From Actinomycetota bacterium (GTDB taxonomy: Bacteria; Actinomycetota; Acidimicrobiia; Acidimicrobiales; JACCXE01): 64,000 nt of DNA. Location: the NCBI GenBank assembly GCA_041166225.1, contig JBEEFT010000184.1:6058-70057 (forward strand), given 5' to 3'. This document shows, piece after piece, positions 1-54,530 of this stretch. Position 1 is the first letter of the stretch. Every line of letters begins with the position of its first letter. The position numbers were made by a program, and so were the translations under genes. The notes under the pieces are model-generated. The model was not told where the DNA came from. It did no database searches and saw nothing but the letters and a program-made list of their open reading frames with translations.

Positions 1-1100
1 TCACAACGAAGAGCGGCTTCAGCCTCCGAGGCAGCAAGAACCACCCGCTGTTGTGCCTCGTGCCGGTAGCGGGCGTCCCGATGCTGCAGTGGCTAATGCT
101 CGACGAAATCACAGAGGGCACCGTCGTCTGCCTTGCCCGCAACGCGTGGATGAACGTCATTCCGCGCGCGCGCGAGATGCAACTCGGTGTGCTCTGCGGC
201 GCGTGGGTGTCCGAAGGTTTCGCGTCCGAGAACCGTGCCGGCATCAACAACACGGACTTCAATTTCTTCGAGGAGATTCTCGAGGCGTACGACGTCATTG
301 TTGGTGGGTCGCGTTACGTGGCGAAACGAGAGACGCGCGTAGACCGCAAGGCGATTTGGGAGCTCGATGTCCAGTCCATGGACGCCTTCAAAGCCAGTCC
401 GCTAGGCGAATTGGTAGGAAGCAAAGCGAGCGACAAGTTCGTTCCATCCGCGGTTTGGAAGGGCGGTTGGGGCGTAAAGCGAGCGTTCCTCATGGCCTGT
501 TTCGAGGGTGATGGCGGCCCCCGAAAGGGCACGGACAATTCGTTCTCGGTTCACTACACGACGTACAGCGAACGCCTCGCTCAGGAGTTGCAGGAGCTCC
601 TCGCAGAGTTCGGGGTGATCGCCAGTATTCAGCGCTACACAAAAGCGAGCGGTGCGATCGAGTTGCGGCTGATCATCAGCGGGCTGCGCAACGTCAAGGC
701 ATTTGCAGAGCGCGTTGGTTTCTTGAAAACCAAGCAAGCCAAGCTCGATGAACTGATTCGCAGGGCGCCCCTTCGAGCGCATCGACTGACGCAGGACCAC
801 GTCCCGTTCGTAGCCGACTTCGTACGCGACGAACTTGAGGATCGCGGGCGTGGCAGTGGGCGCTCGTGGCTCATGGCACACAACTTCGATCGCATCGAGC
901 GGTGGGAGAGCGAGCGCCTTCGCATCATCGATCGGATAAAGGATCCGGAGATCCTCGCCACGATCCTTCCGATCATGGACTCGGGCTATCGCTTCGAGCG
1001 GATCGTTTCGGTTACCGACGAGGAACCCGCCGAGGTCTATTCGCTGCGGGTTGACAGCGAGGACCATTCGTTCCTCGCCGGCGGTTTCGTAAACCACAAC
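1..1100 (+). mobile_element. GyrA intein with LAGLIDADG homing-endonuclease domain (N-terminus lies upstream of the window)
   Basis: nt 3-90 encode ..[28 protein letters not shown], which resembles mycobacterial GyrA intein block B. There are two LAGLIDADG-type motifs: [14 protein letters not shown] (~183-224) and [15 protein letters not shown] (~477-521). The C-terminal splicing blocks [22 protein letters not shown] end at 1100 and are followed by Thr+1 (acc 1101-1103). Confidence 0.85.
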
Positions 1101-3200
1101 ACCGAGTGCCGCCTCGGACTACTCGCCAACGAAATGCTGGCGGGAATCGACGAGAACACTGTCGACTTCGAACCGAACTACACGTTCGAATTCGAACAGC
1201 CAAGCGTGCTGCCATCGCGGTTCCCGAATTTGTTGGTCAATGGGTCACAAGGCATCGCGGTCGGCATGGCCACGAACATCCCGCCGCACAACCTCGGCGA
1301 AGTGATCGACGCCACGATCCACCTGATCGACAACCCCGACGCCACGCCCGACGAACTGATGAAGTTCGTGCACGGTCCCGATTTCCCGACCGGCGGGCTG
1401 ATCCTCGGGCGTCAGGGAATCATCGACGCCTATCGCACGGGCCGCGGTTCCATCCGCGTTCGCGCCAAGACCGAGATCGTGGAAGACAAGAAGGGCGGCG
1501 TCTCAATCGTCGTCAGCGAGTTGCCGTATCAGGCGTCGATGAATGCGATTACGACGCGCATCGCCGAGCTGGTGAACAACAAAGAACTCGAAGGCATCCG
1601 GGCGCTCGACGACCTGTCATCGGGTGTCGACACCAGGCTCGTGATCGGCCTCAAGCGCGACGCCAACGCGCTCGTCGTGTTGAACAACCTGTTCAAGCAC
1701 ACCCAGCTGCAAACCAGCTTCGGCGTGAACATGGTTGCCCTGGTCGACGGCGTGCCCCGCACATTGAACCTGGTCGACGCGCTCAAGGCCTACATCGAGC
1801 ATCAGGTCGACGTCATCACGCGGCGTTCCGAGTTCCGTTTGAAGAAGGCGCAAGACCGAGCGCACATCGTCGAAGGCCTACTGAAGGCGCTCGACATGAT
1901 CGACCGGATCATTGCGTTGGTGCGCGCGTCCGCCGACCGGGCCGAGGCCCGAACTGGTCTCATGGCCGAAGGTTTCGACTTCAGCGAGATTCAGGCCAAC
2001 CACATTCTCGACATGACGATTGGGCGCCTGACGCGCCTGGGTCGCAGCGAGCTCGACGCCGAGATGGCCCAGCTGCGCGAGACGATCGCGGAGCTTCAAG
2101 ACATCCTGTCGAAGCCCGAGGTGCTGCGCACGGTCATCAAGACCGAGATGGGCGCCATCCGCGACAAGTTCGCGACCGGGCGCCGCGCGATCATCACCCA
2201 CGACCCCGGCGAACTCGGCGCCGAAGACTTCATCGACGACGAAGACCTCGTGTTCCTGATTACGCGGGCGGGCTACGTGAAGACCGTTGCCGCGGGCGCG
2301 TTCCGCACGCAGGGCCGCGGCGGTCGCGGTATCGCGGGCGCGAAGCTGAAGGAAGAAGACCTCATCGCGCAGGTCATCCACACGACCGCGCATGCGTTCT
2401 TGTTGTTCTTCTCCACGCGTGGCCGCGTGTTCCGCCTCAAAGCACACGAGATCCCGATGAAGGACCGCACGGCGCGGGGCACGCCGGTGATCAACCTGCT
2501 GCCGCTCGAGCCCGACGAAAAGATCCAGGCGGTCATCGCAACGCGTGACTACCCCAGCGACAAGATGCTGTTGTTCGCCACGAAGAAGGGCGTGATCAAA
2601 AAGACGCCGTTCTCCGAGTACGACAAGAGCCGTCGCGAAGGCTTTATCGCCATCACGCTGAAAGAGGGCGACGAGTTGGTGCGCGTGCTCACCACGAGCG
2701 GCACCGACGACATCTTCCTTGTCACCAGGAGCGGAGCGACTTTGCGCTTCGACGAGCAGTCGGTGCGGCCTACGGGCCGCTCAGCCCAGGGCGTCATCGG
2801 CATGCGCATGCGCGCCGACGACGAGGTGGTTAGTTGCGACGTCGCTCGCGACGACACCGCCATTCTCATCGTCACCGATGCTGGTTTCGGTAAGCGCACG
2901 CAACTCGACAAGTTCCCGCGCAAGGGCCGCGGCGGCCTCGGCATGAAGGGGATCAAGCTCACGGCTAAGCGCGGCTTTGTTGTCGCTGCCTTCATGGTGG
3001 GCTTGGACGACGAAATCATGCTCGCCGCTTCCAACGGTGTCACCGCCCGGATGCCGGTGCGCTCGATTTCAAGCCAGGGCCGAGACGCCACGGGTGTGCG
3101 GGTGATGAACCTCGATAACGGAGCGACCCTTGCCACGGCGGCTCCCATCATCCAGGCTGAAGAAGCCGTCGACGACGACACGGCGATGCCGGTTCAGTAG
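1..3200 (+). CDS. gyrA: DNA gyrase subunit A, 5'-truncated by the window edge and interrupted by an intein (C-extein starts at 1101)
   Basis: Frame 3 is open from nt 3. After ...GGFVNHN the sequence [13 protein letters not shown]...[25 protein letters not shown] matches the GyrA segment that follows the catalytic Tyr. A long C-terminal repeat region follows, and the stop is TAG at 3198-3200. Confidence 0.95.
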
Positions 3201-9065: not shown

Positions 9066-10060
9066 CCGCGCACCGGTACGCCGACCGGATACCAACACGC
9101 GAACGCGTGGTCGGCGGTCACCGTGTCGTCGGACATGAGCGGCGGCTCTTCGTGGTGGCAGTTGTCGCGCGCATACGGACACCGCGGCGAGAAATTGCAC
9201 CCCGCGGGTGGGTTCACGAGATCCGGTGGCCGACCGCCGATTGCGGGAAGACGCGTGTGGCTCGGCTGATCGGTCTTCGGGATCGAGTGGATCAAGGCCT
9301 CGGTGTAAGGCATGCGCATCTGTGTGAACAGCTCGCGGGTCGGCGCCTTCTCGACGATCTTGCCGGCGTACATCACCGCGATGTCGTCGGTGCGTCCGGC
9401 CACGACGCCAAGGTCGTGCGTCACGAGGATCATCGCCATGTGTCGTTCACGCTGCTTGTCCTGAAGCAGGTTGAGGATCTGCGACTGCACGGTGACGTCG
9501 AGGGCGGTCGTCGGCTCGTCTGCGATCAGCAACTTCGGCCCACACGCGATCGCAATGGCGATCGTGACGCGTTGGCGCATCCCGCCCGAGAGTTCGAAGG
9601 GGAACTGTTTCATGCGGCGCTCAGGCTCGGGGATGCCGACGCTGCGCAACAGTGCGACCGCAGTTTCGATCGCCCGTTCCTTCTCCATACCGAGGTGCAC
9701 GCGCAGGCCTTCGGTGACCTGGTTACCGATCTTCATCACGGGGTTCAGCGACGTCATCGGGTCCTGGAAGACCATGCCGATCTCGGCGCCCCACACGGCG
9801 CGCATCTGCTTGGCGTCGAGCGAGGACAGGTCGCGTCCTTCGAACAGAACCCGGCCTTCACTGACCACGTTCTTGGGTGGCAACAAACCCATGATCGAAC
9901 GCGACAGCACCGTCTTGCCCGACCCTGACTCGCCGACGATGCCAAGCGTTTCGCCACGCTCGAGCGTGAACGACACACCGTCGACCGCGCGCACGGTTCC
10001 GCGGTTGGTGCGGAAGTGCGTGACGAGATCCTCGACGACGAGCAGGGGCTGGTCGGTCAC
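9062..10060 (-). CDS. Peptide/nickel ABC transporter ATP-binding protein (OppD/DppD type)
   Basis: GESGSGKTV, LSGGMRQRVTIAIA, LLIADEPTTALD, and a C-terminal CNFSPRCP motif. Confidence 0.9.
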   Translation of the reverse strand: MTDQPLLVVEDLVTHFRTNRGTVRAVDGVSFTLERGETLGIVGESGSGKTVLSRSIMGLLPPKNVVSEGRVLFEGRDLSSLDAKQMRAVWGAEIGMVFQDPMTSLNPVMKIGNQVTEGLRVHLGMEKERAIETAVALLRSVGIPEPERRMKQFPFELSGGMRQRVTIAIAIACGPKLLIADEPTTALDVTVQSQILNLLQDKQRERHMAMILVTHDLGVVAGRTDDIAVMYAGKIVEKAPTRELFTQMRMPYTEALIHSIPKTDQPSHTRLPAIGGRPPDLVNPPAGCNFSPRCPYARDNCHHEEPPLMSDDTVTADHAFACWYPVGVPVRG

Positions 10061-47713: not shown

Positions 47714-48796
47714 TTAACCGCTGGCGCTCACCGCGAACGCGTCAATCACCCGCTCGGTCCACCGGCGAAGATCGTCGTAGTGCTCGGCCGGCGTTTTTCC
47801 GAGCCGCACCACGATCAAGTCGAGCGCCGGTACCACCACGATGCGTTGGCCGTCGTACCCGACGCAACGAAACGTTCCGTATCGATCACCGCCCGCCCAC
47901 CAATGCGCGCCGTAGTAGTTGTCGTTTTCCTCGTCGTAGGACCGGATTCGGCGGGCGTGGTCTACCCAGCCCTGAGGCAGGAGCCGCTTGCCGTCCCACA
48001 CACCGTCACGCAGATAGAGGTAACCGAAGCGAGCAAAGTCTTGGGCGGTTGCATACACGTAGGAGCTCGCGATCCAAGTGCCGGCGTCATCGAAGGTTGC
48101 CGTTGCGCTACGCATCCCGATCGGCGCGAACAACCGCGCTTCAAGAAATCGCCGATACGCATCACCGGCACCGACAAGGCGCGCCACCGCGCCAGACACG
48201 ATGTTCGTTGTCCCGCTCGAATAGTTGAAGCGCTTACCGGGAGGTGCCGCGAGAGGGCGGTCGGCCGCGAACGTGGCGACGTCCGCTTTTCCCTCGCCGA
48301 ACAACATGTTGATCACGTCGGAACGCTCGCCGTCGACGTAATCCTCGACGAAGTCGAGCCCGTCGCGCATGTCGAGGAGGTGCTCGAGCGTGATCACGCG
48401 GCGGCGGTCGTCGTCTCCTGACCACAGCGGCACTCCGAGCGGCTCGTCCAGCGCGAGCCGGCCCTCGTCGACGAGCATGCCGACCAGCGCATGCAGCATC
48501 GACTTGGCCATCGACCAGCTCAGCAGCGGAGTAGTCGCGTTGATCGGCTCGTCGGCACGATCGAAATGTTCGATCGTGCTCGCGTAGCGCTCGGCGACTA
48601 GGCGACCGCGATGCACGATCACGGCGGCGAACGTCGTCGCGCAAGGACCGGATGCGTCGAACAACTCGTCGAGCAGTGCGTCGAGGGCTACTCCGGCAGC
48701 GACGCCGCCCCGCGGCCAATCGATGGTCGGCCACGGCACGCCACCGGGTTGCGGCGGCAACGGAAGCAGGGGTGCGCTGAACGGATCGATGGCCAT
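47714..48796 (-). CDS. Serine hydrolase, beta-lactamase/transpeptidase-like family
   Basis: The SxxK motif is in LLSWSMAKSMLHALVGMLV, and ..YSSGTTN.. is the YxN-like motif. The start is the ATG at 48796 (MAIDPFSAP). Confidence 0.75.
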   Translation of the reverse strand: MAIDPFSAPLLPLPPQPGGVPWPTIDWPRGGVAAGVALDALLDELFDASGPCATTFAAVIVHRGRLVAERYASTIEHFDRADEPINATTPLLSWSMAKSMLHALVGMLVDEGRLALDEPLGVPLWSGDDDRRRVITLEHLLDMRDGLDFVEDYVDGERSDVINMLFGEGKADVATFAADRPLAAPPGKRFNYSSGTTNIVSGAVARLVGAGDAYRRFLEARLFAPIGMRSATATFDDAGTWIASSYVYATAQDFARFGYLYLRDGVWDGKRLLPQGWVDHARRIRSYDEENDNYYGAHWWAGGDRYGTFRCVGYDGQRIVVVPALDLIVVRLGKTPAEHYDDLRRWTERVIDAFAVSASG

Positions 48797-48845
48797 CCCG
48801 ATTCGTGGTTTAGTGCATCGTGCGCTTCGACACCGTTGGCCGCCC

Positions 48846-49352
48846 ATGAGTTGGCTTAGCGAGCGTTCCCGCAACGGCGGCATCGACGAGGTGCCGCTAC
48901 CAAGCGGCGCCGGCCGGTTGTGGCTGTGCGGCAAGCACCTGATCGGGCCTGATCCCGAAGCCACGCTGTTGCGGACGGGCGCGTCGACGGTGGTGTGTCT
49001 CAACGACGAAGCCGAATTGGTGCACCGGTTTCCGGAGTACGTGCGGTGGCTGCGCGCCAACGCGGACGAGCGGGCGGTGTGGTGGCCCGTGCACGACATG
49101 CATGCGCCTGGCGGCGACGGGTTGGGTTCGCTCGTATCGCTTGTGCGCGAACGCCTCGATGCCGGCGAAGGGGTCGTGGTGCATTGTGGCGCTGGGATGG
49201 GACGTGCCGGATCGGTCGCAGCGGCGGTGTTGATCGCCTACGGCGAGCAGATAGACGACGCGCTGGCCCACGTCGCCGTGAGCCGCCCGGGGGCCGGGCC
49301 GCAAACGATCGCGCAGCAACTCGCGTTGGAGGAATACGCCAAGTCGATGTAA
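48846..49352 (+). CDS. Protein tyrosine/dual-specificity phosphatase (CX5R)
   Basis: The P-loop is VVHCGAGMGRAGSVAAAVL. The start is the ATG at 48846 (MSWLSERS..). Confidence 0.8.
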   Translation: MSWLSERSRNGGIDEVPLPSGAGRLWLCGKHLIGPDPEATLLRTGASTVVCLNDEAELVHRFPEYVRWLRANADERAVWWPVHDMHAPGGDGLGSLVSLVRERLDAGEGVVVHCGAGMGRAGSVAAAVLIAYGEQIDDALAHVAVSRPGAGPQTIAQQLALEEYAKSM

Positions 49353-49998: not shown

Positions 49999-50799
49999 TC
50001 AATAGTGGCCGAGTGAGCCGGTACGGCGACATTGCCGTACCGACCACTCGAAACCCCAGAACGCCACCGGCACCAGCACCACCGTGAACAGGCCGAGCGC
50101 TAATGCGTCGCGCCCGATCGCACCAAGGTCCGGGTTCGGAACGAGCGCGAGCCGGACGCCTTCGAGGCCGTGGCTCATCGGCAGCGCGTACGCCAACAGC
50201 TGGAACGGGCGCGGTAACACCGAGATCGGGTAGAGCACGCCGCCCAACAGCCCGAACGCGGACCCGACGAAGCCGAGCAGAGCACCGGTGCGCTTGACCA
50301 CCATGATCAGCCCCGCGGCCGCTAGGCCCACCGCGCTGAACGCAGCGAGGGTCAACAACAACATGCCGCTTGCGATCGCCAGGTTCCCGAGCGCGATTTT
50401 GGCGTGAAACAACAGCGCTCCGAGCGCGATGTACAACACGAGCTGGACCGTTGCGAAGATGAACGGCCACGCCGCGCCACACACCAGCAATAGTTTCGGG
50501 TCGTTCGGGGTGACGAGTAACGCCTCCATCGTGCCCATCTGCTGTTCTTGGCCGAGACTTCCGGCAAAGCTGCCCAAGGCCACCGAGAAGTAGCTCAGGG
50601 CCGCAGTTCCGACGAGCGCGAACGTGAAATAGTCGCCGCCGTAGGGACGCAGGGCGGTGGTGTTTCCCGGCACGAGACGACTCAGGAAGCCCGCCGACAG
50701 GAGCGTCGAGAAGATTCCGGCGAACTGCGTGATGAGCGCGAGGCGATACGTCTTTTCCTGGCGGAAGTCGCGGCGAACGAAGGCACGAATCAACGTCAC
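49999..50799 (-). CDS. ABC-2-type exporter permease
   Basis: The GTG at 50799 overlaps the ATPase stop (GTGA). The six-TM ABC-2 pattern begins VTLIRAFVRRDFRQEKTYRLALI.... Confidence 0.8.
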   Translation of the reverse strand: MTLIRAFVRRDFRQEKTYRLALITQFAGIFSTLLSAGFLSRLVPGNTTALRPYGGDYFTFALVGTAALSYFSVALGSFAGSLGQEQQMGTMEALLVTPNDPKLLLVCGAAWPFIFATVQLVLYIALGALLFHAKIALGNLAIASGMLLLTLAAFSAVGLAAAGLIMVVKRTGALLGFVGSAFGLLGGVLYPISVLPRPFQLLAYALPMSHGLEGVRLALVPNPDLGAIGRDALALGLFTVVLVPVAFWGFEWSVRQCRRTGSLGHY

Positions 50800-51578
50800 T
50801 GCGCCGCCAGCGCTTTCATTGCCCGGCCCAACGTCGTTTTGTTGACGTTCGCTACGTCGTCGACGATCTCGCCCTCGCGCAGCACGCTCACTCGCTCGCA
50901 CACGTCGGCTGCCTCGACGACGTCGTGCGTTGTGAGCAGCGTGCTGACCCCGGCGTCGTCGCGCAGGCGCTTGATCACTACGTGAAATTCCGAGCGCGAA
51001 ACCGGGTCGAGGCTGCGCGTCGGTTCGTCGAGCAGCAGGATCATCGGCCGGTGTAGCAGCGCGCGGGCGAGGCCGAGTCGGCGTCCCATCCCCTGGGAGA
51101 AGCCCGACACCGGCCGATCCGCGTGTTCGGCCAGATTGACCATCTCGAGTGTCGTCTCGATGATTTCGTCCGGCGCGGCGAGGCGGTGCAACGCGGCTGC
51201 AAACTCGAGATTCTGGCGAGCCGTGAGCCGCCAGTACAGGCTGCGCTCGTCACCAGTGCTGAACCCGATCAGCCCGCGAACCGCATCACCTTCGCGCTCG
51301 ACGTCTCGGCCACCAACCAGCGCGCTGCCGCTGTCGGCGGTGACGAGTGTGGCGAGGATGCGCAGGAACGTGCTCTTGCCTGAACCGTTCGGCCCCATCA
51401 CGCCGTGGACCGTGTCCCGGGCGACGATTAAATCGACGCCGCGCAAAGCGTTGACGACACCCTTGGGCCGGCCAGGCCAAAAGCCCCGCACGTAGAAGCG
51501 CTTCTCAACGCCCGTTGCGTCGACTGCGTTGGCACCGAAGGGCGGGTCTGTGCGTATGTCGGGCGAGGCGGTTACCAC
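50796..51578 (-). CDS. ABC transporter ATP-binding protein (DrrA/ABC-2 partner type)
   Basis: Walker A is GPNGSGKST, the signature is FSQGMGRRLGLARAL and Walker B is ILLLDEPTRSLD. Confidence 0.9.
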   Translation of the reverse strand: MVTASPDIRTDPPFGANAVDATGVEKRFYVRGFWPGRPKGVVNALRGVDLIVARDTVHGVMGPNGSGKSTFLRILATLVTADSGSALVGGRDVEREGDAVRGLIGFSTGDERSLYWRLTARQNLEFAAALHRLAAPDEIIETTLEMVNLAEHADRPVSGFSQGMGRRLGLARALLHRPMILLLDEPTRSLDPVSRSEFHVVIKRLRDDAGVSTLLTTHDVVEAADVCERVSVLREGEIVDDVANVNKTTLGRAMKALAAQ

Positions 51579-51596
51579 GACCTACATTCTCGCGGC

Positions 51597-52019
51597 GTGA
51601 CGTCGGCCCGGCTGCATCTGCGAATGACGACTTTGCTCGTCGCGTCCGCAGTGTCGTTGCGTCGCCGGGACACTACCGAGACGCTGCGCCGCATGCTTGA
51701 CAGCACGCGGCGTTGGCCGCCGTTTTCGGGGCCGGAGGCGCTCCGAGCGCTGCGGGTTCCGGCGCGGGCGCTGAGGGCAAACTGTCTCACTCAATCTGTT
51801 GCCCTCACGGTTGCGTTTGAGCGCGCAAACCAGAACCCGACGCTAGTTCTGGGGTGCAGGCGCTACGAGAACCGAAAATGGGGCGCGCATGCCTGGGTCA
51901 TCGTCGGCTCGGACGTCTTCGACGCTATTCCGAGCGGTGCTCACGAGCCGCTCGCGCGGCTCACCGCGGAAACCGAATGGGTGCCCGCCCCGATGCCGCC
52001 CAAGCGGCAAGCGGATTAG
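51597..52019 (+). CDS. Lasso-peptide-type B2 protein (transglutaminase-like Cys protease, PF13471-like)
   Basis: ..ANCLTQSVALTVAFERANQNPTLVLGCRR...WGAHAWVIVGSDVFD carries the Cys...His...Asp triad context seen in McjB-C-terminal/B2 proteins. It starts at the GTG at 51597. TACATT (51583-88) lies 8 nt upstream, which suggests a leaderless transcript. Confidence 0.8.
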   Translation: MTSARLHLRMTTLLVASAVSLRRRDTTETLRRMLDSTRRWPPFSGPEALRALRVPARALRANCLTQSVALTVAFERANQNPTLVLGCRRYENRKWGAHAWVIVGSDVFDAIPSGAHEPLARLTAETEWVPAPMPPKRQAD

Positions 52020-52141
52020 AGAATGAGGCTGATGTTGATGGCCTCGGCCTGACGGCCTTGAGTCCACTCTTCGATCGAGCCGTAATCGCTCAACTGCGGC
52101 GTTTCGTAGCCGTCTTCGGTGGTGTTGATTGCGTCGTTCAT
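52016..52141 (-). CDS. 41-aa RiPP precursor with a canonical lasso-type leader and an atypical 13-aa core (not in the ORF track)
   Basis: GGAGGA lies 6-7 nt upstream of the ATG (52141..52139). The product is MNDAINTTEDGYETPQLSDYGSIEEWTQ|GRQAEAINISLIL. Y12-x-x-P15-x-L17-x3-G21-x5-T27-x28 fits the lasso leader motif YxxPxLx3Gx5Tx exactly, and Gly follows at core position 1. The stop TAA (52018..52016) overlaps the B2 stop TAG (52017-52019). Confidence 0.75.
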   Translation of the reverse strand: MNDAINTTEDGYETPQLSDYGSIEEWTQGRQAEAINISLIL

Positions 52142-52224
52142 TTCTCTCCTCCGGTCGTACCTGTCGAGAACGCACCAACTGACCTTTTCTTGCGTAAAGA
52201 TCTAGAAGATGAGAGTTTCTTGAG
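52142..52224. promoter_or_regulatory. AT-rich divergent control region between the precursor gene and the PqqD/kinase operon
   Basis: By my count, 52181-52224 is about 39% G+C in a window that otherwise looks roughly two-thirds G+C. It contains TTTCTTG twice (52186-92 and 52216-22), the palindromes AGATCT/TCTAGA (52198-52206) and AAGAT twice. Confidence 0.5.
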
Positions 52225-52506
52225 GTGCGACGCTTTGTCCCCAGTAGTGACGTGATCATCCATGAAGAAGAGGGCGACGCCTTCTTGCTGCATGTTGAGT
52301 CAGGACGATACTACGGACTCAACCGTTCTGCACTAGTTGTTTGGAACGCCGTCGTCGCAGGGGCCGATCCGGTCGACGCATTAACCCAGAAGTGGCCGCA
52401 GCGACAGCCCGAAACATTGCGTTCCGACGCAGAAGCCCTGGTCACGGGGCTGTTAAACGCAGGCTTGATCACCGAGCAGACCGAGGCGCCGGGACCCGCT
52501 GCGTGA
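52225..52506 (+). CDS. PqqD-family RiPP recognition element (lasso B1-type chaperone)
   Basis: 93 aa. ..EEGDAFLLHVESGRYYGLNRSALVVWNAV..G....AL........ETLRSDAEALVTGLLNAGLI is the PqqD/RRE pattern. Confidence 0.8.
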   Translation: MRRFVPSSDVIIHEEEGDAFLLHVESGRYYGLNRSALVVWNAVVAGADPVDALTQKWPQRQPETLRSDAEALVTGLLNAGLITEQTEAPGPAA

Positions 52507-53417
52507 CCGCAGCCGAGACGTGGCCGGGATGCCACGGCGTGCGCCTCGTGGGCGAGCCGGTCGATCTCGGAACATCTGCTGGGTCGCCTCTGGCTGAAGC
52601 AACCATTCGTTTCGGCGCTGTAGCGGTAGGCGACTCTGATCACCTGTGGACGCAACACGGCGAGGCCGTTGTCGACGGCGAGCACTTCGAAGTCGACCGG
52701 GTGATGCGCCAACGGGGCCGCGGGGCTTACGTCCTGACCGGTAGTGGTGGCCCCACGATGGAGGTTGACCAGGACGCCGCCACCATCACGATTGAGGATG
52801 GCGACGAGGCCGTCCAGCTTCAGCTGCTGGCGACTTTCGGGGTCCCGTTGATCTTGCACACCACGGACGCGCTGGTGCTGCACGGCTCGGCCTGCGCGCT
52901 TGGTGACCGCACGATCGTGGTCTGCGGAGAGTCGGGTTCGGGCAAGTCGACGCTTCTGGTCGGGCTTGCGGACGCCGGTTGGACCCCGATTACCGAAGAT
53001 CTGTGCGCGGTCGATTTCCGGCCCCAGACGCCGCACGTATGGAGCGGCCCGCCATGGGTGCGCATCGGGCACGGCAAACCCGGCCCCGTCGGCAGCGCGC
53101 AGCGCTTCGGTTCCGCGTACAAGACGGGGTGGGACATAGCGGCGTCGCAAACGCCAGTGCCGCGCCCGATTACCCACGTGGTGTTGCTCGACGCCCCCGG
53201 CGGCGGCGACGCGCTGCTCGAGCCGGTCCCGGCGGCGGTCGCGATCCGGCGCCTCGCGCCGCACGGTGTTTGGCTCGGCGACCAAGACGAGCTCGGGCGG
53301 CGTCTGTTCGGACCTATCGCCGATCTAGTCGCAAAAGTGCCTGCGTTCCGGCTTCGCATGCCCCGCAGCGACTCATGGCTTGACGAGGTCCCGGGGCTTC
53401 TCGCGGCCCGGCTCTAG
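52503..53417 (+). CDS. HPr-kinase-related serine kinase (HprK C-terminal-domain-like)
   Basis: The GTG at 52503 overlaps the PqqD stop (GTGA). ALVLHGSACALGDRTIVVCGESGSGKSTLLVGLADAGWTPITEDLCAV matches the HprK P-loop core. Confidence 0.75.
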   Translation: MTAAETWPGCHGVRLVGEPVDLGTSAGSPLAEATIRFGAVAVGDSDHLWTQHGEAVVDGEHFEVDRVMRQRGRGAYVLTGSGGPTMEVDQDAATITIEDGDEAVQLQLLATFGVPLILHTTDALVLHGSACALGDRTIVVCGESGSGKSTLLVGLADAGWTPITEDLCAVDFRPQTPHVWSGPPWVRIGHGKPGPVGSAQRFGSAYKTGWDIAASQTPVPRPITHVVLLDAPGGGDALLEPVPAAVAIRRLAPHGVWLGDQDELGRRLFGPIADLVAKVPAFRLRMPRSDSWLDEVPGLLAARL

Positions 53418-54530
53418 CGGGGCGCGGCTGCGACCAGTAGCGATGCGCCACGATCGGCGGATGAGGCGCCCGCCGAGAATCGCCGCCAGCTTTACCGATG
53501 CCGCGGGGCCCTGGCGCCCGATTACGTCGCTCAGTACCAAGGTCGCCTGCGCGCGACGTTCGTCGACCAGCGCGTAACGCAAACTCATTCGGATTGCGCT
53601 GTCGCGCCGCATTACCGGCCAGTCGGCGGACAGCACGGGCGCAATTGCGGCCCGCCGTTCTCGGCCACCACTGACGCGTCGCAGTTCCTCCGGTGACGCG
53701 ACGCCGAGGCGTTGGGCCTGGGCGAGGGCCACTGCCACGGCAGTGGGGCAGCGCGCCTCGTAGGCGATGCGGCCGACGCCGTCCCAGTCGACGCCGTCGC
53801 GCTGCTCGGCATCGGTGACGACCATGGCGATGTCGACGGTCCACAAGAGACGCGCGAATACGTGGAACGGCTTGGCCGCGTGCGCCGCCAGCATCACAAT
53901 CTCGATTTCGGGCGGCAAGTCGAATGCCGGCGCTCCGTACAGCGTCGTGTTTCGGCGGGCCGCCCACAGTTGGTCGCTCGTGAGGCGATTCGCCCGCGAA
54001 CGCCAGAACGCGAGGTCGCGATGCAGGTCGATGGGCAGGCCGGGCAACGCCGGGTGGGTCAAGTCGATCTCGTGGGGCCGGCGCTCGGGTAGCGGGGTCC
54101 AGCCTGCGCCGCCGAGCGCGCCAACCGCCGGCTTGATCTGCTCGGGGGGCAGCACGAGATCGATGTCGTCCATCGGACGCAGGCCGGGATCGGGATAACG
54201 GCTCGCAAGCGCGCCGCCCTTCATTACGAGGGCGGGGTGTCCGGCGTCGGCCAGCGGCTGCAGAGCGAGCGGCCCGATGCGGGGCAACATCAGACGGCTC
54301 TGCGCGTGACATCGCCCGAAGTCGTTCTGCAGGACGTCGACCCAGCGCTCGCCGTCGGCCGCGATGCCGGCCTGCTCGAGCGCGCGCCACAGCAGCGGCG
54401 ACACGCGTTGCACGAGAGCGATGTCGGCGGCTTCGTTGAGGTCGGCGCCCGCGTCGACGGCAGCGAGGACCTCGGCCGGGGATGGTTCGCGTCGGCATGC
54501 GGCCCATAGCAGCGCCGCAGTCGGGTTCAC
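53373..54530 (-). CDS. Uncharacterised nucleotidyltransferase family protein (PF14907/NTP_transf_5-like)
   Basis: ..LVMKGGALASRYPDPGLRPMDDIDLVLPPEQ...AL...GW matches the family core. It is convergent with the kinase gene and overlaps it by 45 nt. Confidence 0.7.
   Translation of the reverse strand: MNPTAALLWAACRREPSPAEVLAAVDAGADLNEAADIALVQRVSPLLWRALEQAGIAADGERWVDVLQNDFGRCHAQSRLMLPRIGPLALQPLADAGHPALVMKGGALASRYPDPGLRPMDDIDLVLPPEQIKPAVGALGGAGWTPLPERRPHEIDLTHPALPGLPIDLHRDLAFWRSRANRLTSDQLWAARRNTTLYGAPAFDLPPEIEIVMLAAHAAKPFHVFARLLWTVDIAMVVTDAEQRDGVDWDGVGRIAYEARCPTAVAVALAQAQRLGVASPEELRRVSGGRERRAAIAPVLSADWPVMRRDSAIRMSLRYALVDERRAQATLVLSDVIGRQGPAASVKLAAILGGRLIRRSWRIATGRSRAPLEPGREKPRDLVKP

Follow-up and report, generated by a model that had tools for sequence, protein, structure and literature searches.

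Background

Lasso peptides form a class of RiPPs (peptides made by the ribosome and modified after translation) that is defined by its cyclase. The closest characterised system working without one is that of the Linear Polyphosphorylated Peptides (LPP) of Bacillota, whose clusters combine a RiPP recognition element (RRE), an HprK kinase and a nucleoside triphosphate (NTP) transferase (Popov et al., Nat Commun 2026; PMC13381572). Expression of an LPP cluster produced a linear core of 45 amino acids (aa) with 1-4 phosphates on Ser3, the unphosphorylated precursor being poorly cleaved and the NTP transferase (LppN) inactive in the heterologous host (PMC13381572). In the view of its authors, LPP are the linear counterparts of phosphorylated lasso peptides and are found in Bacillota only (PMC13381572). 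Among lasso pathways, PadeB1 and PadeB2 cut their precursor independently of PadeC (PMC5067487), and HprK-like kinases phosphorylate a Ser of the linear, leader-bearing precursor before cyclisation (PMC8498205; PMC6993621). PsmN, which is inactivated by mutation of D134/D136, is required for the addition of one or two hexoses onto the phosphate (PMC6993621). Furthermore, RRE-Finder reported that neither a peptidase nor a cyclase accompanies about half of the lasso-type discrete RREs, which it marked as potential false positives (PMC7470986). Here, we analysed a 64-kb stretch of DNA from an Actinomycetota bacterium (contig JBEEFT010000184.1; hereafter "the window", i.e. the whole stretch) and describe, at positions 49999-54530, a seven-gene locus with a lasso-type precursor and no cyclase. 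With moderate confidence, we consider it a functional RiPP locus of actinobacterial split-B lasso descent that has lost its macrolactam synthetase, and whose predicted product is a linear peptide modified on Ser10, not a lasso.

A preliminary description of this locus had held its architecture to be uncharacterised. In concept, this claim has been outdated by LPP, with which the locus shares a discrete RRE together with an HprK-like kinase plus an NTP transferase in the absence of a cyclase (LppN being likened to the nucleotidyltransferase-fold enzyme, or NTase, of the locus by description, not via PF14907), as well as a YxxP RRE-binding motif in the leader. The two systems differ, however, in their protease, which is the SpI/SipW-like LppS in LPP and a lasso B2 Cys-protease here: Pfam and NCBIfam scans of every open reading frame (ORF) of the locus retrieved no SpI/SipW-like peptidase, B2 being the only peptidase. 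They also differ in exporter (an MsbA-like pump in LPP, a split DrrA-like ATPase and ABC-2 permease here), in leader (YxxPxVLxHQxIxFETxxS in LPP, the lasso-type YxxPxLx3Gx5T-x here, i.e. YETPQLSDYGSIEEWTQ) and in substrate, LPP precursors being 35-200 aa long with a phospho-Ser3 whereas the cores of the present family measure 13-14 aa with an invariant Ser10. The closest solved relatives of the PqqD-type RRE of the locus are lasso B1 proteins, namely TbiB1 (E 0.0015), TfuB1 and PbaB1, while LppB (9x8z) was absent among its matches to the PDB at E up to 10. Finally, LPP hosts are Bacillota, whereas the loci described here stem from actinobacterial (Acidimicrobiia-like) metagenome-assembled genomes (MAGs). 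The loss of the cyclase was probably independent of LPP.

The lasso clusters of paeninodin and pseudomycoidin resemble the locus in their HprK-like kinase (PadeK/PsmK), NTP transferase (PsmN), split B1/B2, ABC exporter and Thr(-2) leader, but they have a C cyclase, Asp/Glu at core positions 7-9 and a C-terminal phospho-acceptor Ser, whereas here no cyclase was found, no acid is conserved and the Ser lies 4-5 residues from the C-terminus. The pairing of an HprK-like protein with a PqqD-type RRE is also known, in a non-lasso context, from the HPr-rel-A (TIGR04352/TIGR04353) and SynChlorMet (ScmC/ScmD) systems. The locus scores far under the cutoffs of HPr-rel-A (30.2 bits against 200 for the kinase, 16.2 against 35 for PqqD), and a homologous kinase in a related locus (L002) gave a weak PF27840 ScmC match. 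A B2-dependent, cyclase-less actinobacterial variant was not found described in the literature searched, and searches on PF14907, HPr-rel-A/TIGR04352 or Acidimicrobiia lasso peptides likewise retrieved nothing relevant. The most fitting description of the locus is that of a lasso-pathway derivative from actinobacteria which depends on B2, has no cyclase and shares the logic of LPP.

Results and discussion

Precursor family and absence of a cyclase

Seven intact genes are packed into the locus, encoding an exporter permease and its ATPase, B2, a 41-aa precursor, PqqD, the kinase and the NTase. The precursor ORF is preceded by a GGAGGAG Shine-Dalgarno sequence and matches the lasso leader model NF033521 (lasso_leader_L3) at 21.3 bits for a cutoff of 19; its leader, YETPQLSDYGSIEEWTQ, immediately followed by the first Gly of the core, is an exact fit to the pattern YxxPxLx3Gx5T-x/G, with Thr at position -2. 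Homologous precursors were present in 16 further fetched loci (numbered here with the prefix L), corresponding to 14 distinct places. Across these loci, the leaders are near-invariant, reading YE(T/A/S)PxL(S/T/A)(D/E)YG(S/T)IE(E/Q)WT(Q/K/R), and are followed by cores of 13-14 aa: GRQAEAINISLIL in the window, and GRQAEGIEISLIL, GSYAQIVDLSAVIL, GSYAQIVDLSIII, GAYAEVINLSVVLP, GKYAEDINVSVIF, GVRAQLVQISIII, GVRAQLVTISVII, GRPGQIDISIILFP, QNPPIEIEVSLVIG and QGCDDIICISIILP in the others.

Core position 8 is occupied by N, E, D, Q, T, I or C, no acidic residue is conserved, and two core types (L007; L056/L087) are devoid of any acidic residue. The window core itself, with Asn8 and Glu5 as its sole acid, does not conform to the lasso core rule, under which position 1 is a small residue and Asp/Glu occurs at 7-9. 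The only invariant residue is one Ser, located at position 10 in most cores and at position 9 in one, which is followed by 3-5 hydrophobic residues. Since no acid is conserved and two core types are acid-free, a lasso macrolactam cannot define this cyclase-less family, and the absence of the cyclase is in keeping with the chemistry of the core substrates. Codon comparisons reveal purifying selection on the precursor: between the window and L083, 8 changes are synonymous and 1 is non-synonymous, against 7 and 0 between L005 and L085, and 6 and 2 between L007 and L056. One member departs from the others, as the core QGCDDIICISIILP of L089 (1601-1690, +) holds two Cys and an N-terminal Gln; its product could bear a disulfide or a thioether.

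The cyclase was searched for with a hidden Markov model (HMM) built from six Asn-synthase-type lasso cyclases encoded beside related NTases (PF00733 being confirmed on two of the six), which was run, with HMMER filters off, on every six-frame ORF of at least 30 aa of the window. The best match reached only E 0.28 (5.6 bits), and no SGGxDS PP-loop occurred in any frame of the 64 kb; the lasso-cluster C protein, an Asn-synthetase-like macrolactam synthetase (PF00733), is thus lacking within the window. This absence rests on the HMM and the motif scan, a Pfam scan of 133 six-frame ORFs of at least 180 aa, for which 25 of 106 families were listed, not being used for it. The gene order of the window recurs in 14 other loci, and no cyclase was detected either in the DNA examined around them, which extended up to ±10 kb for L003-L007, L042 and L056, and over 1-14 kb for the metagenome loci L083-L089. 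Large genes that recur close to the NTase across 80 genome loci were also considered as hidden cyclases, and none was Asn-synthase-like: they encode MFS, P450, PhyH, ECH, GNAT, AMP-binding, melibiase/GH31-like, acyl-CoA dehydrogenase, thiolase and luciferase-like proteins. In addition, there is no room for another gene in the locus because the gaps between successive genes (-4, 18, -4, 83, -4 and -45 nt) do not exceed 83 nt.

Most of what the preliminary description had read from the locus is borne out by these data. The seven genes lie intact where it had placed them, the 41-aa ORF does carry a lasso leader, the window holds no cyclase ORF and the locus no unassigned space, and the translational coupling of PqqD and kinase through a GTGA overlap was found as described. 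Collecting homologous loci and scoring them for cyclase and core, as it had advised, yielded a cyclase in 0 of 14 relatives within the DNA examined, and the invariant core Ser.

Related loci and probable descent from lasso pathways

With each species represented by a single genome, a collection of NTase relatives gave 80 loci with ±10 kb of flanking DNA. Eight genome loci combine a close B2 homologue with the same leader (the window, L003, L004, L005, L006, L007, L042 and L056; L003 is the same place as L001, and L004 the same as L002), and seven metagenome contigs (L083-L089), recovered by their leader peptide, are arranged alike. These 15 loci, window included, share the order NTase(+), kinase(-), PqqD(-), precursor(+), B2(-). 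NTase homologues number in the hundreds, and Acidimicrobiia MAGs are the source of nearly all those that are named.

By contrast, a cyclase-type ORF lies beside the NTase in seven of the 80 loci (L008, L020, L021, L028, L049, L057 and L080). Six of these ORFs, with their SGGxDS motif, are the profile's own source, and that of L021 matched the profile at 2.3e-108. A precursor was found in six of them (all but L021), with cores of 22-29 aa and Asp/Glu at position 8 or 9. Given their PF00733 cyclase and long cores with Asp/Glu at 8/9, these are canonical lasso loci. Their leaders, YEAPxLxxHGSxxExT-x, are homologous to those of the window family, and most also carry PqqD, B2 and an exporter of the ABC-2 type. 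Only L008 and L028 were found to have a kinase that falls into one BLAST cluster with the window kinase. They differ from the window family by the PF00733 cyclase next to the NTase, and by a penultimate Ser in 4 of the 6 cores (L020, L049, L057 and L080).

A neighbour-joining tree places the window-type NTases in one clade that branches from within those of cyclase-bearing lasso loci, with identities within the clade down to 38%. A nested clade of such divergence suggests that the cyclase was lost once, long ago, by a lasso ancestor. The preliminary description had proposed that the recognition and cleavage half of the lasso machinery was kept and combined with kinase and NTase tailoring in place of cyclisation, as something other than recent decay; the 15 loci, their cores, the selection on the precursor and the NTase clade support this proposal.

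Modifying enzymes

The catalytic Cys (in a "CL" motif) and His ("AHAW") of B2 are invariant across window-type and canonical B2s, and a D/E is present at His+11 in window-type B2s, in agreement with the Cys/His/Asp context noticed initially. In the kinase, His127 and a GxSGxGKS motif are invariant. With the profile of the kinase family, E values between 3e-8 and 9e-7 were obtained for structures of HPr kinase/phosphorylase (1jb1, 2qmh, 1ko7 and 3tqf).

The NTase retains D122 and D124 in all of 35 homologues. Set side by side without an alignment to PsmN, they are read as the counterpart of its D134/D136 metal site. The AlphaFold2 model of the NTase (pLDDT 92.9) gave, by fold search, weak matches to the Pol-beta-type NTases LnuA, ANT(2'')-Ia, TglT and FKRP, none of them at E <= 0.001, the matched FKRP entries being described in the PDB as complexes with CDP-ribitol; its sequence profile found no match among PDB sequences. 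These matches are weak and generic, so that no specific NTase chemistry can be assigned: the fold fits and the donor is undefined. Gene neighbours provide hints. A melibiase/GH31-type glycosidase-like gene runs with a 4-nt overlap onto the NTase start in L007 (8310-9965, +) and L056 (8475-9992, +), and a NUDIX hydrolase gene sits directly beside the NTase in L005 (5222-5695, -) and L006 (9501-9974, -), which would fit a sugar or nucleotide chemistry on a phosphate.

Proposed pathway and alternative explanations

By analogy with the biochemistry of PadeB1/B2, the paeninodin-cluster kinases, PsmK, LppK and LppB, and with the genetics of PsmN alone for the NTase step, the following pathway may be drawn. 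The PqqD-type RRE would bind the YxxPxL leader motif of the 41-aa precursor, and the HprK-like kinase would phosphorylate Ser10 of GRQAEAINISLIL, maybe repeatedly, with the leader still on. The PF14907 enzyme might then derivatise the phosphate or the Ser with a hexose-type or nucleotide-derived group, before the RRE hands the leader to the B2 Cys-protease for a predicted cut after Thr(-2)-Gln(-1). Export of a linear, amphiphilic 13-mer by the ABC-2 ATPase and permease would complete the pathway.

Several points weigh against this linear, Ser-modified product. For the family as a whole, product, transcripts and enzyme activities are predicted from sequence only, all relatives are MAGs or metagenome contigs, and neither the 80 genome loci nor the best 120 of 241 homologues of the NTase included a cultured carrier. 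The window kinase taken alone matches HprK models only around the P-loop (TIGR04352, 30 bits), and the characterised lasso HprK kinases use a C-terminal Ser, and LppK Ser3, whereas the Ser lies here 4-5 residues from the C-terminus. The NTase step is the weakest link, because LppN showed no activity when expressed heterologously and PsmN has no settled chemistry. Lastly, a cyclase acting in trans may be possible for the members with a core Asp/Glu at 7-9 (L003, L004, L042, L084 and L088), the search having covered the window and the flanks.

Such a trans-acting, Asn-synthetase-like enzyme encoded elsewhere would make the locus part of a true lasso pathway, as could be expected from a leader, a B1 and a B2 that are all of lasso type, and from the Gly1 that accompanies Asp/Glu7 or 8 in some members (E8 in L003, D8 in L004 and L084, D7 in L088). 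We hold this to be unlikely. The window core offers Asn8 and an acid only at Glu5, the cores of L007 and L056/L087 offer no acid at all, and Asn8 is maintained by purifying selection in two sub-clades. Furthermore, none of the 15 loci has a cyclase in the DNA examined, whereas in sister loci it directly adjoins an NTase of the same family, and an 8-residue ring in a 13-aa core would leave a tail of just 5 residues. That the locus is instead a decaying, functionless remnant of a lasso cluster after deletion of its cyclase is hardly credible to us: one canonical component is indeed missing and all carriers are uncultured, but seven genes stand intact with their catalytic motifs and translational coupling, the architecture lasts across 15 loci among which NTase identity falls to 38%, synonymous change is strongly in excess in the precursor, and the GC content is that of the flanks.

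A ring or cross-link independent of Asp/Glu, set by the kinase, the NTase or B2, would represent a new RiPP macrocyclisation arising from the lasso pathway. Possible routes are an elimination of phospho-Ser to dehydroalanine, a phosphodiester or ester via Ser10, or a transamidation by B2 using Gln/Asn. The only fixed core positions are the invariant Ser and a mostly conserved N-terminal Gly, position 5 is E or Q in most cores (I or D in two) and position 8 often N/Q, B2 has a transglutaminase fold, the core of L089 contains two Cys, and the NTase family has neither a relative solved structurally within reach of sequence searches nor a defined chemistry, all of which would suit such a product. 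We nevertheless find it a distinctly improbable one, as this chemistry is without precedent in these families, the locus contains neither a lyase nor another partner gene, Gln replaces Gly1 in two members, and the closest characterised cyclase-less system makes a linear product. There is also very little chance, in our judgement, that the kinase-NTase pair serves another substrate, for instance a protein or glycan of the cell envelope, the peptide being just cleaved and exported unmodified. Such a role is suggested by the large sister clade in Acidimicrobiaceae, where the kinase-PqqD-NTase triad lies beside a Tat/sortase-type surface protein and not a short peptide, and by the LPP and paeninodin clusters, which are often found within capsule loci. 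In the present family, however, the kinase is translationally coupled to an RRE that matches the leader motif of the precursor, the sole invariant core residue is a Ser, and NTase, kinase, PqqD, precursor and B2 form a fixed block in the 15 loci while the flanks differ.

Gene organisation of the locus and its surroundings

The features of the locus are collected in Table 1. The lengths of its genes agree with those of their homologues, and an independent Joint Genome Institute (JGI) gene call on an identical metagenome contig recovered the same genes, including the 41-aa ORF and the 304-aa kinase; in that call, B2 starts at ATG 51624, giving 131 aa. Recent horizontal transfer of the locus was rejected on account of a GC content and a GC content at third codon positions (GC3) equal to those of the flanks.

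Table 1. Coordinates of the genes and intergenic region of the locus, given in positions of the window, with the matches and gene-call details of each.
Feature	Position	Strand	Details
ABC-2 type exporter permease	49999-50799	-	266 aa from GTG 50799; open frame up to 50901; PF01061 4.9e-16, PF12698 1.2e-11
DrrA-like ABC exporter ATPase	50796-51578	-	PF00005 4.6e-26; TIGR01188 drrA 2.3e-56
Lasso-type B2 leader peptidase, transglutaminase-fold Cys protease	51597-52019	+	140 aa; PF13471 4.5e-10; NF033537 lasso_biosyn_B2 41.8 bits vs cutoff 33
Precursor peptide, 41 aa	52016-52141	-	leader residues 1-28 = 52058-52141; core GRQAEAINISLIL = 52019-52057; Ser10 codon = 52028-52030
Divergent intergenic region, 83 bp, relatively AT-rich	52142-52224		read from sequence
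Discrete PqqD-type RRE, lasso B1 equivalent	52225-52506	+	93 aa (JGI: 84 aa); PF05402 8.6e-10; NF033530 4e-10
HprK-like serine kinase	52503-53417	+	304 aa (JGI: 304 aa); GTG start overlaps PqqD stop as GTGA
PF14907 (NTP_transf_5) nucleotidyltransferase-fold enzyme	53373-54530	-	385 aa; PF14907 1.8e-32, 113.3 bits vs gathering cutoff 31.2

The GTG start of the permease also overlaps the stop of the ATPase as GTGA, and the permease homologue of L001 is called at 267 aa. This ATPase-permease pair adjoins the locus in L003, L004 and L056 as well, the ATPase alone being called in L007. The 83-bp divergent region is a presumed promoter region for the precursor on the minus strand and for the PqqD-kinase pair on the plus strand. 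Two convergent gene pairs overlap at their 3' ends, the stops of B2 and precursor interlocking at 52016-52019 and the kinase and NTase genes sharing 45 nt (53373-53417). Both overlaps recur in L001/L003 and L002/L004, and an antisense interplay between the convergent transcripts of each pair would be possible. The divergent starts of ATPase and B2 are separated by 18 bp (51579-51596), or by 45 bp if B2 begins at ATG 51624, and either spacing implies leaderless or overlapping promoters.

Approximately 650 bp from the permease, an ORF of the window (48723-49352, +) encodes a Cys-based phosphatase of the protein tyrosine phosphatase/dual-specificity type, with the motif VHCGAGMGRAG; this PTP-SAK/DSPc gene is syntenic in L001 and lies outside the conserved block of the other relatives. 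At its other end, the window starts within gyrA (3-3197, +), which is split by an intein that carries a homing-endonuclease domain of the LAGLIDADG type (PF00521, PF03989, PF14528 and PF14890).

The PqqD-HprK-PF14907 triad in other loci

B2 and cyclase are both absent from the majority of the remaining NTase loci (>50, Acidimicrobiaceae). In these loci, the gene upstream of the kinase and PqqD codes for a protein of 140-200 aa (e.g. 9331-9951, - in L010; 9132-9737, - in L016; 9306-9716, - in L013), which presents the traits of a surface protein. A Tat-like SRRQAxGRMS motif is combined with AAWVVPEIL in a hydrophobic region, which corresponds to the [W/Y]xxPx[ILV] RRE-binding motif, and with TAKPAAGA/(T/A)LSG, where a Ser stands at +3 past the AxA-like site (slash), as does Ser3 of LPP. 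A Ser/Thr/Gly/Pro-rich spacer follows, and then an LAxTG sortase-type signal. Among these proteins, WxxP was found in 55 of 56, RR in 52 of 56 and LAxTG in 47 of 56, and an LPP-like system may be working on a wall-anchored protein in Acidimicrobiaceae. The cluster "c15", upstream of the NTase in the large clade, was rejected as an antisense artefact of a real minus-strand gene ("c21"). Two separate PF14907 loci were present on one chromosome or contig in several Acidimicrobiaceae genomes: L010/L054 (OY970336.1), L019/L043 (CAVWKG010000016.1) and L036/L044 (CAWHGF010000007.1).

The presence of the triad beside sortase-type proteins suggests that PqqD, HprK-like kinase and PF14907 enzyme constitute a portable Ser-modifying module with several substrate types. 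We give about even chances to the broader view that combines such a portable module with a second, independent origin of linear phospho-RiPPs, directly from a lasso pathway, a view that is much likelier than the cross-link reading.

Implications

In this family, leader, B1 and B2 appear to survive as a stable and selected unit without a cyclase, on cores unable to form the ring. Genome mining tools that demand a cyclase throw out such loci. If our reading of a linear, Ser-modified product is true, B1/B2 would constitute a stand-alone leader-removal module for cores of 13-14 aa, useful in RiPP engineering, and the locus would offer a compact seven-gene system in which to learn how PF14907 enzymes act, a question shared with PsmN and LppN. 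Linear phosphorylated RiPPs, reported from Bacillota with another protease, would then extend to Actinomycetota, with at least two origins from lasso ancestors.

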